DNA from: an uncultured Thermoplasmatales archaeon
GTDB lineage: Archaea > Thermoplasmatota > SW-10-69-26
NCBI GenBank assembly: GCA_964492585.1
Contig: CAZBKU010000002.1
Coordinates: 1 to 30,560 of the forward strand
DNA: 30,560 nucleotides
Direction of reading: 5' to 3'
Part shown: positions 5,111 through 29,774 of the stretch, in pieces
Layout: the number at the start of each line of letters is the position of its first letter
Numbering within the stretch: position 1 is the first letter of the stretch
Notes under the pieces: generated by a model
The model's database searches: none
Seen by the model: the letters and a program-made list of their open reading frames with translations, nothing else
What the model was told of the DNA's origin: nothing
Program-made: the position numbers and the translations under genes

Positions 5111-6568
5111 CTACCCCTTGATGACGCCCATGGGCGCCAGCTTGACGACCTTGTTGGAGATCCCGGCACCCTGGCAGACGTCGACGACGTTGCTGACGTC
5201 CTTGTAGGCCCCCGGGGCCTCCTCGGCGGCCACCCGGTTGCTGGCGGCCTTGACGATGATGTTCTTCTGGCTGCGCAGGTCGCGGACCAGATCCTCGCCT
5301 CGCCAGGTCTTCTTGGCCTGGGTCCGGCTCATCTGGCGCCCGGCACCATGGCAGGTCGAGCCGAAGGTCTGCTCCATGGCACCCTCGGTGCCCGAAAGCA
5401 GGTAGCTGCAGTTCCCCATATCGCCGGGGATGATGACCGGCTGACCCACGCTGCCGTAGTCGGCCGGGACATCTGGCTGGCCGGGGCCGTGGGCCCGGGT
5501 GGCGCCCTTGCGGTGGATCATCAGCTCGCGACGCTCGCCGTCGACCTCGTGGGTCTCCTTCTTGGCGATGTTGTGGGCCACGTCGTAGACGATCTCGATG
5601 CCCATGTCCTCGGCGTCGCGGCCGAAGACCTTCTCGAAGCTCTTGCGGACCTGGTGGGTGTGCACCTGCCGGTTGCAGAACGCGTAGTTGATGGCCGAGC
5701 ACATGGCCCCGTAGTAGTCCTGGGCCGGCTGGCTGTCGATGGGTGCGCAGGCCAACTGCTTGTCGACCAGCTGGTCGGTGAAACCCCGGTCGCTGCGCTC
5801 CATGGTCTTGAGGAAGTCGGTGCAGATCTGGTGCCCGTAGCCGCGCGACCCCGTGTGGATCATCACGCACACCTGGCCCTCCTCCTCGATGCCGTAGGCC
5901 TTGGCGGCTGGCTCGTCGATGATCGCCTCGACGCGTTGGACCTCCAGGAAGTGGTTGCCGCCACCCAGCGAACCGATCTGCTTCTTGCCGCGATCTTTGG
6001 ACTTCTGGCTGGCCTTGTCCGGGTCGGCCTCGGGGTGGACGCCACCGTGCTCGATGTGCTCGGCGTCGCGCTCCCAGCCGAAGCCGTGCTCGATGAGCCA
6101 GGGGACCCCGTGCTCGAGGACCTGGTCGAGCTGGCTGTGGGAGAACTTGACCCGGCTTGCGGTCCCGACGCCCGAAGGGCAGTTGTCGAAGAGGACGTCG
6201 GTGAGACGGTCGAGCTCCGGGGCGACCTCGTGGGCGGTCAGGTCCGTGCTGAGCAGCCGGACCCCGCAGTTGATATCGAAGCCGACGCCGCCGGGGCTGA
6301 TCACACCCTCCTCCATGTCGAAGGCAGCCACCCCGCCGATGGGGAAGCCGTAGCCCCAGTGGATGTCCGGCATGGCCATGCTGGCCTCCACGATGCCCGG
6401 CAGGGTGGCCACGTTAGCGACCTGCTCCATGGCGTTGTCCTCGAGGATCTGGTCGAGCATCGCGTCGTTGGCGTAGATCCGACCAGGGACGTTCATGCCC
6501 TGCTTGTAGCTGGTCGGGATCTCGTAGGTGAACTCCCCGGTCTTGTCCAGCGGGCCGTCCCAGGTCAT
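5111..6568 (-). CDS. rtcB: RNA-splicing/repair ligase RtcB
   Basis: Motifs MPDIHWGYGFPIGG, GFDINCG, LGGGNHFLE, HTGSRG, HNIAK, HRKGAT, STCHGAGR and EEAPGAYK are all present; no intein-sized insertion. Confidence 0.98.
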   Translation of the reverse strand: MTWDGPLDKTGEFTYEIPTSYKQGMNVPGRIYANDAMLDQILEDNAMEQVANVATLPGIVEASMAMPDIHWGYGFPIGGVAAFDMEEGVISPGGVGFDINCGVRLLSTDLTAHEVAPELDRLTDVLFDNCPSGVGTASRVKFSHSQLDQVLEHGVPWLIEHGFGWERDAEHIEHGGVHPEADPDKASQKSKDRGKKQIGSLGGGNHFLEVQRVEAIIDEPAAKAYGIEEEGQVCVMIHTGSRGYGHQICTDFLKTMERSDRGFTDQLVDKQLACAPIDSQPAQDYYGAMCSAINYAFCNRQVHTHQVRKSFEKVFGRDAEDMGIEIVYDVAHNIAKKETHEVDGERRELMIHRKGATRAHGPGQPDVPADYGSVGQPVIIPGDMGNCSYLLSGTEGAMEQTFGSTCHGAGRQMSRTQAKKTWRGEDLVRDLRSQKNIIVKAASNRVAAEEAPGAYKDVSNVVDVCQGAGISNKVVKLAPMGVIKG

Positions 6569-6596
6569 GGTATACGGGCTAGGCTAGACCCGGGCC

Positions 6597-6603
6597 CTTT
6601 ATG
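6597..6603 (-). promoter_or_regulatory. TATA-like element for rtcB
   Basis: CATAAAG on the minus strand about 29 nt upstream of ATG 6568, with no SD, as expected for a leaderless archaeal mRNA. Confidence 0.45.
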
Positions 6604-6607
6604 GGCC

Positions 6608-6898
6608 TTATCCCGACACCGGGGCCGACGGGTGGGCGGCGTGGTCACGCCGCAGCCGCTGGAGCAGAGGGCGAGCCGGGCGCTCGACCCGCTTGAGGCC
6701 CACCAGGCCGGTCGTCCAACGGATCCGGTTCTCGAGAGCTTGGATCCGGGCAGCATCCTCGGCTTCGACGGCCACGATCAGATCGAAGCTCCGGTCCTTG
6801 TCCCGCACGACGCTGAAGACGCCGGTGTGCTTGCCGACCGCTGTCTCGACCGACCGCTCGAACCCCGGGGCCGCGTTGATCCGGAAGACCGCTTTCAT
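6608..6898 (-). CDS. Stand-alone Lrp/AsnC ligand-binding (RAM) domain-like protein
   Basis: MKAVFRINAAPG...GVFSV...FDLIVAVEAED...IR...G follows the RAM beta-alpha-beta pattern; no HTH. ATG 6898 follows an SD-like GAGTGA. Confidence 0.6.
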   Translation of the reverse strand: MKAVFRINAAPGFERSVETAVGKHTGVFSVVRDKDRSFDLIVAVEAEDAARIQALENRIRWTTGLVGLKRVERPARPLLQRLRRDHAAHPSAPVSG

Positions 6899-6929
6899 GC
6901 GTACATCACTCGCCTGGTATCCCATCGGC

Positions 6930-7299
6930 GGTCAGCAAGCATGGTGTTTGGCTCTGCTAGTTACGTGCAGATCCGGGCCAACATCGCCCAACCGGACGGA
7001 GCGTGGAGCCGCGATCCCGGGAGGAGCCCTGGCGAACCACGAAGTGGGTGTAGGCGCAGCAGAGGTCTGTGCTGGCCGGCACCACGGTACGGCCAGCACC
7101 CGGGCCATGGGACGCTCCTGGCCGGCTTTCTTTCCGCAACAGCTTCCTTTGGCCGGGATGGGAGGCCGCAGGGAACGGCCTACGTCCGTGCTCGGCGCCA
7201 GCCGAGCATCCGAGGCATGGAGAGCTCGTCGGCCCGTTCTCTTTCGCAACCGTTTCTCTTGCGGGCCGACGAGGCAACGATGCCTCGACCAAGAGAAAG
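6930..7299. ncRNA. Candidate structured non-coding RNA, unassigned family
   Basis: Five consecutive hairpins: 7069-7078/7090-7099, 7116-7123/7151-7158, 7163-7168/7176-7181, 7189-7196/7201-7208, and 7211-7218/7280-7287 with inner 7225-7236/7262-7273. No credible ORF in a ~400 bp gap of an otherwise compact genome. Confidence 0.55.
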
Positions 7300-7301
7300 G
7301 G

Positions 7302-7706
7302 TTAGATGTCGAAGATGACCTCGACCAGGGCCGGGTCCTCCTCGATGGTCAGCGCGTGGTAGGTGGTGGCCTTGATCTCCATGAGGTAGCCGTGGCGATC
7401 CTCGTCCCACGTCTCGCCATGGAGCCTGGCGGTCAGGTGCCCGTCGCCGAGGTCGACCTCCGCGTCGACGGGGATGAAGCCCTCCATCTGGTGGAGGAAG
7501 TTGAGCTCGTCGAGCAGGTCGACCACCAGATCATCGACGGTGCCGGCCTTGATCTCGATGATCTCCAGGTCACGGGCCTCGACCTCGCCGTCGGGGCAGA
7601 CCAGGTGGCCGAACGCGGCCAGGAGCTCGGCCAACGCGTCCTCTAGATCATCGCCGGTGGCTCGCAGGCCGACATCAGCGGTGTGCTCGAGGACCTCCCA
7701 CGGCAT
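7302..7706 (-). CDS. Archease (RtcB activator)
   Basis: EHTADVG at the N-terminus, IKATTYH and terminal VIFDI. ATG 7706 preferred over GTG 7718. Confidence 0.95.
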   Translation of the reverse strand: MPWEVLEHTADVGLRATGDDLEDALAELLAAFGHLVCPDGEVEARDLEIIEIKAGTVDDLVVDLLDELNFLHQMEGFIPVDAEVDLGDGHLTARLHGETWDEDRHGYLMEIKATTYHALTIEEDPALVEVIFDI

Positions 7707-7817
7707 GGAGGCCGGCACCGGGGGCTTGCTTGAAGGCCTTTGCCCGCCGACGGCGCAGCCTCACCGCCGAGCCTAGAGAGCACTGGCCTCAAGTAGGCGG
7801 TCGCGTTGTCCCGTCCG

Positions 7818-28595: not shown

Positions 28596-29774
28596 ATGGC
28601 TTTCGAATGGTGGATGACCGTCGTCGGACTCGCCCTGCTTTTCGACTTCTTCAACGGGGTCAACGATGCGGCCAACAGCGTGGCCACCATCGTGGCCACC
28701 CGGGTCCTTACCCCCGTGTCCGCGGTCGCGTTGGCCGCGGTGATGAACCTCGCGGGACCCTTCCTCTTCGGGACCGCGGTGGCCAAGGCCGTCGGATCCG
28801 GCCTGGTCGACGTGAACATCCTGACGACCAACGTGCTCGCCGCCGCCGTGCTCGGGGGCATCTTCGCCACCGCTCTGGCCACGGCCTTCGGGCTACCGAT
28901 CTCGGTCTCCCACTCCTTGGTCGGCGGCCTTCTAGGCGCCGGCTTCGCGGCGGCCGGGGTCGGCGCTCTGCTTCTGCCGACCGCCGGTTCCCTTCTCGTC
29001 GCCGGCGAGTGGATCGTCGGGGGTTTCGTGGCCGGTGGCCTGCTCGGTGTGGTCGGGGGGTCCCTGTCCGGCTCCGAGCAACTGCGCATCCCGGGCTTCG
29101 TCGCAGGGGCCGTGGGGGCCACCTTGGCGCTGGTCTACGGCATCGCCACCGGTGCCGTAGCGCTCAACAAGCTGGGGGCCACGCTCATCTTCATCGTCTT
29201 CTCGCCGTTCATCGGGTTCCTGGGCGCCTTCGCCCTGGGCACCATCATCATCTGGATCTTCGGTGGTGCCGACTCGCGCAAGGCCAACTGGTGGTTCCGC
29301 AAGCTCCAGCTCCTCTCGGTCTCGGCCTTCTCGCTCTCCCATGGGACCAACGACGCGCAGAAGACCATGGGCATCATCGCAGCCCTGCTCTTCGCCAACG
29401 GGGTCATCGACACGTTCTTCATCCCGACCTGGGTCATCATCGCGGCGGCCGTGGCCATCGCGCTGGGGACCTTCATCGGTGGATGGCGCGTCGTCGAGAC
29501 CGTCGGGCACCGTCTCACCAAGCTCGAGCCCTACCAGGGGTTCAGCGCCGAGACCGCCGGGGCCAGCGTCCTCTTCTGGATGGCCAGCCTCGGGGTCCCC
29601 GTCTCCACGACCCACGCCATCACCGGGTCGATCATGGGCGTCGGCGCCACACGCCGCCTGACCGCTGTCCGCTGGAACGTGGCTCGGCACATCATGGGCG
29701 CCTGGGTGCTGACGATCCCGGTGGCCGGTGCGGTGGCCTGGATCGTCTACGAAGGCATCATCTACGTCCTCTGA
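28596..29774 (+). CDS. pit: PiT family inorganic phosphate transporter
   Basis: Paired signatures NGVNDAANSVAT and SHGTNDAQKTMG, plus PVSTTH. Confidence 0.95.
   Translation: MAFEWWMTVVGLALLFDFFNGVNDAANSVATIVATRVLTPVSAVALAAVMNLAGPFLFGTAVAKAVGSGLVDVNILTTNVLAAAVLGGIFATALATAFGLPISVSHSLVGGLLGAGFAAAGVGALLLPTAGSLLVAGEWIVGGFVAGGLLGVVGGSLSGSEQLRIPGFVAGAVGATLALVYGIATGAVALNKLGATLIFIVFSPFIGFLGAFALGTIIIWIFGGADSRKANWWFRKLQLLSVSAFSLSHGTNDAQKTMGIIAALLFANGVIDTFFIPTWVIIAAAVAIALGTFIGGWRVVETVGHRLTKLEPYQGFSAETAGASVLFWMASLGVPVSTTHAITGSIMGVGATRRLTAVRWNVARHIMGAWVLTIPVAGAVAWIVYEGIIYVL

Follow-up and report, generated by a model that had tools for sequence, protein, structure and literature searches.

A conserved module with a predicted pseudoknot and a candidate third strand next to the archease stop codon in Thermoplasmatota-related archaea

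Introduction

Extended triple helices are known in few RNAs, namely some from eukaryotes and viruses and some riboswitches, and none was found described in archaea or beside RNA-ligation genes; likewise, literature searches returned no report tying archease or RtcB loci to an element such as the one presented here, and none of an archaeal triple-helix RNA. This element was found just past the stop codon of an archease gene in the window, which is the whole stretch of 30,560 nucleotides that was analysed. It comprises a long hairpin whose terminal loop holds two mirror-related tracts, and a further tract, complementary to one of them, near the foot of the stem. The loop tracts are pyrimidine-rich when read on the plus strand and purine-rich when read on the minus strand, which carries the flanking genes.

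In the ENE elements of KSHV PAN, MALAT1, MEN-beta and transposons, two stem-held pyrimidine-rich tracts clamp an encoded purine tract, and the plus-strand reading of the present element shares this arrangement, with a purine tract a few nucleotides 3′ of the stem and 8–9 potential triples, C+.G-C included, a length comparable to that of MALAT1. If the plus strand is the transcribed one, the covarying complementary purine tract located 2–4 nt 3′ of the stem would correspond to the ENE tail, and protection of the RNA end would be a likely role for both. The preliminary description of this DNA had drawn attention to this ENE-type likeness. It does not, however, extend to membership of the family, since the curated ENE models gave no Rfam 15 match at the gathering score in the window and seven homologous loci, and the host is archaeal, without poly(A) biology. 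Moreover, the tracts of the element enclose no more than an 8-nt linker, in which 2 bp at most can form, and therefore belong to a terminal loop, whereas those of ENEs face each other in an internal loop between two stems. The element also differs in its lower stem of ~21 bp with a conserved 6×6 internal loop and, on the gene strand, in an inverted polarity, in which a purine clamp would hold a U-rich tract.

A second group for comparison is formed by the H-type triple-helix pseudoknots of telomerase RNA and of the SAM-II and preQ1-II/III riboswitches, in which a flanking single strand pairs with the loop to give a helix stacked on the hairpin stem, and the remaining loop nucleotides line this helix as a sequence-matched third strand, as proposed below for the element. 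The latter is much larger, with a stem of 12–13 bp, an additional fold-back stem (P1) and a linker of 6–12 nt, and it is placed 3′ of a coding region, unlike the known examples, which reside in 5′ leaders or RNP cores; it has no homology to them in sequence or model.

Polypurine reverse-Hoogsteen hairpins (PPRHs) are synthetic DNA reagents, and the gene-strand reading resembles them in having two antiparallel mirror purine arms that a short loop connects and one of which is Watson-Crick paired to a pyrimidine target. The same reading recalls the purine.purine-pyrimidine triples of the tRNA D-stem; in natural RNAs, such triples are known as isolated ones, not eight or nine in a row. Type III antitoxin RNAs (ToxI) also consist of tandem RNA units with a triplex-cored pseudoknot, but their units measure ~36 nt against ~140 nt here, where usually one functional unit is present at a position fixed to the archease stop codon; no ToxN/AbiE-like toxin or defence gene was found among the neighbours, and PADLOC returned no hits. 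A mirror repeat of the kind that forms H-DNA is present as well, with arms of only 8–9 bp, and here a third tract and the flanking stems covary in addition.

The Archease Locus and Its Host

The window has a GC content of 68% and is most likely of archaeal origin, since the nearest relatives of its archease (87–50% identity) come from uncultured Thermoplasmatota/Thermoplasmatales assemblies and neighbouring proteins match PF24434 (DUF7557), PF25212 (HVO_A0114) and PF24038/PF24037 (DUF7347/DUF7346), families that we take to have been defined on haloarchaeal proteins. The host thus looks like a Thermoplasmatota archaeon of 68% GC. The element is housed in a non-coding gap of about 380 nt (6899–7301) between two minus-strand genes. 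One of them encodes archease (7302–7718, minus strand; Pfam PF01951, E = 2e-30), with a probable ATG start at 7706, and the other is a small ORF of 96 aa (MKAVFRINAAPGFE..., 6608–6898, minus strand), which separates the element from the next gene, RtcB (5111–6568, minus strand; PF01139, E = 1e-171). A 405-aa protein of unknown family completes the neighbourhood. The small ORF gave no Pfam, NCBIfam or PADLOC match; an ORF of 94–96 aa is kept in the closely related contig L067 (1287–1571) and is missing from the other lineages. Between this ORF and the element, a 40-nt non-coding block (window 6938–6975; CCGGATCTGCACGTAACTAGCAGAGCCAAACACCATG on the minus strand) is almost invariant relative to L067, and may serve as a promoter, either of the small ORF or, divergently, of a plus-strand RNA, or of both.

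BRE/TATA-like boxes were observed 22–31 nt before the ATG, with separate ones for archease, for RtcB and, in L005, for the gene that follows the element. These boxes are lineage-specific, with GGGCAAAGGCCTTCAAGC before archease and GGTAAC-N-CCCTTAAG or CCCATAAAGGGCC before RtcB, and were located at 7728–7745 and 6575–6600 of the window (both minus strand), 1155–1185 of L003, 3690–3735 of L008 and 2995–3040 of L066. The box-to-ATG distance of 22–31 nt suggests that the mRNAs may be leaderless. Runs of at least four T or A number only nine in the whole 30.5-kb window, and runs of T4 or more only three, one of which falls within 70 nt after a stop codon (that of the gene at 28596–29774); oligo-T is not used after the window's other 33 genes. 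Since such runs are extremely rare and post-stop oligo-T tracts almost lacking, this organism does not use the classical archaeal signal for transcription termination.

Anatomy of the Element

All parts of the element were described on the gene strand, that is, the minus strand of the window. The hairpin at 7211–7287 and the tract at 7290–7298 are, as judged from their conservation, one module of ~90 nt, in which the archease stop codon is followed, from 5′ to 3′, by 0–4 nt, a tract S1, a spacer of 2–4 nt, the 5′ arm of stem P1 (P1a), an internal-loop strand J, the 5′ arm of stem P2 (P2a), the terminal loop composed of tract S2, a linker of 6–12 nt and tract S3, then the 3′ arm P2b, the second internal-loop strand J′, the 3′ arm P1b and, usually, a further hairpin, H2. 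In the window, S1 (7290–7298, minus strand; UUUCUCUUG, or CAAGAGAAA on the plus strand) starts 3 nt past the archease stop and is the Watson-Crick partner of S2. Stem P1 pairs 7211–7218 with 7280–7287 over 8 bp, and stem P2 pairs 7225–7236 with 7262–7273 over 12 bp, the two being set apart by a 6×6 internal loop. The 5′ arm of P1 (7280–7287, minus strand) reads CGAGGCAU and covaries among lineages (GAGGCAU, GGCCCCU, GGGGCCU, GGGGGCU, GAGCCAU), as do both 3′ arms, P2b (7225–7236, minus strand) and P1b (7211–7218, minus strand), whereas the internal-loop strands are conserved, J (7274–7279, minus strand) being CGUUGC with the consensus CGNNGC and J′ (7219–7224, minus strand) CUCUCC with the consensus CGNUSC. 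The 5′ arm of P2 (7262–7273, minus strand) is CUCGUCGGCCCG. S2 (7253–7261, minus strand; CAAGAGAAA) occupies the first 9 nt of the loop, directly stacked on P2; the linker L (7245–7252, minus strand; CGGUUGCG), with a possible 2-bp mini-hairpin, joins it to S3 (7237–7244, minus strand; AAAGAGAA), which mirrors S2 in a fixed register and is the candidate third strand. The module is followed by the conserved 9-bp hairpin H2 (7188–7209, minus strand), which has equivalents in L003, L005 and L067, by unit 2 (7100–7187, minus strand), a degenerate tandem duplicate of the module, and by the conserved 10-bp hairpin H0 (7068–7099, minus strand), which closes unit 2.

On the plus strand, the loop of the module (loop 2) reads TTCTCTTT-CGCAACCG-TTTCTCTT at 7237–7260 and is a perfect 8-nt mirror, while that of unit 2 (loop 1) reads TTTCTTTC-CGCAACAG-CTTCCTTT at 7127–7150, a mirror in 7 of 8 positions; 7 of the 8 linker positions are identical between the two loops. 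The plus-strand purine tract at 7290–7298 is a 9-bp Watson-Crick complement of 7253–7261 and, in parallel orientation, matches 7237–7245. The mirrored tracts, the linkers and the complementary purine tract had been reported in the preliminary description, and every sequence and coordinate proved correct, as did the nearness of the purine tract to the stem, which it approaches to within 2 nt of the base of P1. Tracts of this kind are scarce in the window: among the 13 AT-rich homopurine/homopyrimidine tracts of at least 8 nt in 30.5 kb, four lie inside 7126–7260.

Distribution among Relatives

The contigs carrying 12 close archease homologs were compared with the window. The module was found after the archease stop in the window, L067, L003, L004, L005, L006/L007, L008 and L063, and is truncated where the contigs of L002 and L065 end; L064, L066 and L068 do not have it. 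It thus occurs in about nine related lineages, in which it starts 0–4 nt past the stop codon. A covariance model (R1) built from nine module copies gave 72–103 bits for the full post-archease copies and recovered the truncated copies of L002 and L065, as well as an extra copy of 44.9 bits upstream of archease in L003; it detected nothing elsewhere in the window, in viral contigs or at 54 loci of distant archeases, and a metagenome scan yielded only distant archeases, all of them devoid of the module. In L063 the module follows archease though RtcB is not downstream, and the module is therefore tied to the archease 3′ end and not to RtcB. We regard it as a real, new and narrowly distributed RNA motif, whose structural principle is known while its architecture, host and gene context are not.

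Covariation of the Stems and of the Three Tracts

The two stems are well supported, with compensatory changes on both sides in 16 of the 20 pairs of P1 and P2. Lengths are also held within narrow limits across lineages (P1, 7–8 bp; P2, 12–13 bp; S1–P1 spacer, 2–4 nt), and in almost all units the first nucleotide of the loop is also the first of S2.

S1 and S2 form 9–16 strict Watson-Crick pairs in spite of their different sequences in the several lineages: UUUCUCUUG : CAAGAGAAA in the window and L067, UUUUUCUUUG : CAAAGAAAAA in L003 and L004, AUUUUUCUUUG : CAAAGAAAAAU in L005, UUUUGUUUUC : GAAAACAAAA in L006/L007, GAAGACCUUUCUUUUC : GAAAAGAAAGGUCUUC in L008 and CUUCCUUGG : CCAAGGAAG in the upstream copy of L003. 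Ten of 12 pairs were altered on both sides, and 90% of the S1:S2 cells were paired against 69% in shuffled alignments, none of 500 shuffles equalling the observed value. As the alignment was register-anchored and fitted to the proposed pairing, sliding the strands against each other by 1–3 columns is a fairer control than shuffling, and pairing then fell to at most 66%. Covariation thus shows that the hairpin loop tract S2 pairs with the flanking strand S1, the arrangement of an H-type pseudoknot.

The relation of S3 to S2 was examined in one fixed register, in which position i+1 of S2 corresponds to position i of S3, counted from the 3′ end of the loop. In the mirror reading, 61 of 72 positions were identical, against a column-shuffle mean of 49.3 and with none of 20000 shuffles reaching 61; the figures for the three tracts rest on only about four or five independent pattern changes. 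A direct-repeat reading was rejected, since its best register gave 48/72. At the informative non-A positions, 9 of 16 matched where 4.4 were expected, and the informative base shifts jointly in S2 and S3, from A2-G-A-G in the window to A3-G in L004/L005, A4-G in L008 and A4-C in L006; in L006/L007, S1 has a G and S2 and S3 each have the corresponding C. Beyond the end of S3, the duplex of L008 goes on as mixed sequence, whereas the stretch that S3 covers is homopurine/homopyrimidine in every case. Such a composition is not required for Watson-Crick pairing as such and points to a triplex, with S3 as a putative third strand in the groove of the S1:S2 helix. The S1:S2 duplexes are also weak (−6.5 to −12 kcal/mol, L008 and the upstream copy of L003 excepted), so that a third strand would matter. 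The three-tract triplex logic proposed earlier, for which three-way covariation in homologs had been named as the test, was thus supported by both comparisons, and the mirror and purine-tract observation is well beyond chance.

Duplication, Decay and Selection

The two units of the window have had different fates. Unit 2 is without an S1 of its own, its P2 is weakened, and it scores only 9.7 bits with R1. When the window is compared with L067, identity is 98.9% in unit 1, 96% in H2 and 94% in H0, about 85% in the surrounding non-coding DNA and 84% at the third codon positions of archease, while unit 2, with 79%, falls below the latter; furthermore, the L067 loop of unit 2 (AACGGAGAG ... GGAAGAAA) is no longer a mirror. 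Loop 1 therefore belongs to a decaying duplicate, which drifts at or above the neutral rate, and the gene-proximal unit 1 is under strong purifying selection. Units were likewise duplicated locally and have decayed in L003. It had been stated that loop 1 has no partner in cis and might therefore clamp a target in trans. The former was confirmed by a search of the window, in which four matches with at most one mismatch were found where 6.7 were expected, the only exact one being the loop itself; the latter is rejected, as loop 1 is part of a decaying duplicate that lacks S1.

GC-rich hairpins (GGUGC...GCAC) stand after each unit, at 7068–7099 and 7188–7209 of the window, 1846–1880 of L003 and 1068–1100 of L067. 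The stem arms of H0 are identical in the window, L067 and L003, only two loop bases being different, and in view of this conservation the conserved RNA may reach far past the clamp. Upstream of the archease promoter of L003 lie sequences resembling S1, P1a, J and P2a, which look like a copy of the element joined to that promoter.

Which Strand Is Transcribed

The fold is formally possible on both strands, and the signals from wobble pairs, tetraloop motifs, folding energy and promoter search are conflicting. The gene strand is favoured by its context, since both flanking genes lie on it and S1 begins 0–4 nt past the stop codon in all nine gene-proximal copies; in a search of the loci for BRE/TATA-like signals, no promoter for an antisense RNA was recognised. 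As oligo-T is no general terminator in the window, S1 is not a routine termination signal. The window S1 (TTTCTCTT) is no oligo-U terminator, and T5 runs occur in the S1 of most other lineages, where a contribution to termination is conceivable.

Other signals favour the plus strand. A.C or C.A oppositions on the gene strand, which are G.U on the plus strand, occur in L005, L003_A, L006/L007 and the H2 of the window, while the one clear G.U on the gene strand is in P1 of L006/L007, the tally being 3–5 G.U on the plus strand against 1–2 on the gene strand, and the ratio of mismatches of the two kinds roughly 4–5 to 1–2. The RNAalifold consensus energy was −44.5 kcal/mol for the plus strand and −34.2 kcal/mol for the gene strand, single-sequence folds were equal or better on the plus strand (window z-scores of −5.3 against −3.6), and the latest stem substitutions (L006 versus L007; window versus L067) both leave a G.U on the plus strand. 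In addition, the triples that the plus strand would form, U.A-U and C+.G-C, are established RNA triplex chemistry (review PMC13541005).

The preliminary description had taken the plus strand for the RNA, and the wobble pairs, energies and triplex chemistry do agree with it, but gene context and abutment to the stop codon make a sense transcript at least as likely. Our estimate is that the sense strand has an even chance or slightly better of being the RNA, that an antisense RNA is possible though doubtful, and that other explanations have little room. On the sense strand, a pyrimidine (U-rich) tract of the 3′ untranslated region would be held in a clamp formed by two purine tracts.

Proposed Explanation and Its Rivals

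The explanation that we put forward, tentatively and, taken as a whole, with slightly less than an even chance of being right, is that a conserved, cis-folding, three-stranded pseudoknot starts the 3′ untranslated region of the archease mRNA. S2 would extend the P2 helix by pairing with S1, as the covariation shows, and S3 would run back antiparallel to S2, with the same sequence, to enter the groove of the S1:S2 helix as the third strand; the mirror covariation suggests that the triples on the gene strand would be of the A.A-U and G.G-C type. P1 would fold back beside P2 and deliver S1 to the loop, so that the knot could close within one molecule. The 3′ end of S1 would then be placed at the top of P2, at the start of S2, with 2–4 nt leading on to P1a, while J/J′ link P1 with the bottom of P2. 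With standard A-form dimensions, P1 of ~7 bp (~20 Å), to which J and J′ add 3–4 nt each, would span the gap set by P2 and two extra pairs (~14–15 bp, ~40 Å), provided that the conserved internal loop turns sharply, and closure in cis would explain the conserved lengths of P1, P2 and the spacer. For this reason, the earlier conclusion that S1 is too far from its own loop, and docking hence intermolecular, does not follow; the conserved spacings make docking in cis sterically plausible.

Regarding the role, the best guess is a lock of the 3′ end against exonucleases that would be coupled to translation. The knot may act as a compact 3′ cap halting 3′-to-5′ exonucleases at the end of the archease coding region. 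As S1 would be covered by a ribosome that has reached the stop codon, termination would require the knot to be unfolded each time, although it may re-form between ribosomes, and the fate of the archease mRNA would in this manner be linked to its translation. Unit 2, as a decaying duplicate, would have no role. The chemistry counts against the sense strand: in vitro, RNA strands disfavour the purine-motif triplex, and we know of no natural precedent for an all-RNA purine-motif triplex of 8–9 consecutive triples. That the sense strand holds the first such natural triplex, of 8–9 A.A-U and G.G-C triples, acting as a translation-coupled 3′-end lock on the mRNA of an RNA-repair cofactor, is in our judgement rather unlikely.

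The RNA may instead be the plus strand, that is, a non-coding RNA convergent with archease and folded as a classical H-type pseudoknot, a reading that we consider possible but would not expect to prevail. Its stem 1 would be P2 and its stem 2 the purine tract 7290–7298 paired with the 3′ half of the loop (7253–7261), while the U/C-rich stretch 7237–7244 would lie parallel to the purine tract in the major groove, with U.A-U and C+.G-C triples, and the 3′ end of the RNA would be buried and protected as with ENE elements. The covariation of P1/P2, S1:S2 and S2/S3 fits this strand equally well, and loop 1 of such a pseudoknot would occupy the major groove of stem 2 without special pleading and by established RNA chemistry (PMC13541005), as in the telomerase RNA, SAM-II and preQ1-II pseudoknots and by the logic of an ENE with its A-rich tail; the wobble counts, consensus energy, z-scores and latest substitutions set out above are on its side too. 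Nevertheless, neither promoter nor terminator was recognised for such a gene, its transcript would continue as antisense into archease, and the loop tracts, which in most lineages are T5 runs on the plus strand, would be potential archaeal termination signals inside the RNA. It also offers no reason for a purine tract ending 0–4 nt from the archease stop in every lineage, and in L006/L007 the purine strand is broken by a C, which would require a non-canonical G.C-G triple. It appears improbable that the S1:S2 helix and the P1–P2 hairpin do not come together in a compact monomer, being instead alternative states between which co-transcriptional folding, terminating ribosomes or a factor would switch the RNA, or that S1 docks into the loop of another molecule, in dimers or oligomers. 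S1 is indeed only 2–4 nt from the base of a ~21-bp stem, nested folding programs always build P1–P2 and leave S1 free, and the S1 of unit 2 in L003 fits the S3 of unit 1 (UCUUCUUU:AAAGAAGA) better than its own S2; however, the conserved lengths of P1, P2 and spacer and the start of S2 at the first loop nucleotide are predicted by a monomer of fixed geometry and not by trans or alternative pairing, and most lineages have a single unit.

Least probable, and in our view very much so, is that the element is no functional RNA at all and instead represents H-DNA or a cruciform, a bidirectional oligo-T terminator or insulator, or a selfishly duplicating hairpin repeat. The loop is formally a mirror repeat of the H-DNA type, but its arms of 8–9 nt are short for H-DNA, which requires no further covarying tract and no covariation of the stems on either side. 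The T-rich motif of S1 is also that of the complement of S2, one for each direction of transcription, yet independent terminators would not covary base for base over 9–16 nt, the mixed-sequence extension of L008 included, and oligo-T is not employed by the other 33 genes, nor does the window S1 have a run longer than T3. Local duplication followed by decay, seen in unit 2 of the window and in two extra copies upstream of archease in L003, would suit a reading of this kind, as would the four contigs ending in or just after the element and the occurrence of both G.U and A.C mismatches; against this, the gene-proximal copy is strongly selected, and copies occur only next to archease.

Whichever strand is the RNA, its three strands carry natural compensatory "mutants" in about nine lineages, and the module is thus directly testable in vitro. 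If it is the plus strand, clamp-type protection of 3′ ends exists beyond eukaryotes and their viruses; if it is the sense strand, a triplex chemistry that RNA was believed not to adopt exists in nature. In either case, the fixed site at the archease stop suggests that the machinery of tRNA splicing and RNA repair in archaea is under a post-transcriptional control not recognised so far.

Other Candidates and Minor Observations

Several other identities were considered for the element and set aside. Rfam gave nothing credible at the gathering threshold in the window and in seven homologous loci, matches with E up to 10 being at chance level, and no tRNA or tmRNA was found. A C/D-box or H/ACA guide was rejected because inspection by eye revealed no C/D boxes and no ACA box at the right spacing, as was a K-turn in the internal loop, where no G.A pairs were seen by eye, and a BHB splicing motif, no 3-4-3 bulge-helix-bulge being visible. 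The frame past the stop codon is open in the window and in L003, but a coding extension, readthrough or frameshift was dismissed since loop and linker lengths differ by non-multiples of three and all three stop codons are used. The repeated ATCTTCG(AC) could hint at a transposon with target-site duplication; however, the archeases of L064, L066 and L068, which have no module, end in the same FDV-stop, and the archease stop codon is therefore native. Finally, the L004-type loop resembles the BRE/TATA boxes of its lineage, but a promoter in the loop was discarded, as the linkers of the window and L006 are GC-rich and the stems covary.

Three lineages, the module-less L064 among them, have a conserved non-coding block, GTAGCA(A/G)T...(C/T)ACGAGACAGC(G/C), downstream of archease, at ~3640–3670 of L006/L007, ~1950–1980 of L063 and ~3018–3050 of L064, without a match in Rfam. 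Four independent contigs stop in or just past the element (the end of L001, L002 at 4476, L004 at 4591 and L065 at 2978), that of L004 in a poly-G run; tandem units, tract-length polymorphism or sequencing trouble at the hairpin are possibilities. The motif (A/C)TCTTCG(AC), which encodes the C-terminus IFD of archease (window 7305–7316), recurs in the non-coding DNA after each unit, at ~7040–7050 of the window, 1730–1740 and 1075–1085 of L003 and 3517–3545 of L006, and in the loop linkers of L002 and L008, and is possibly a trace of tandem duplications that included the end of the gene.
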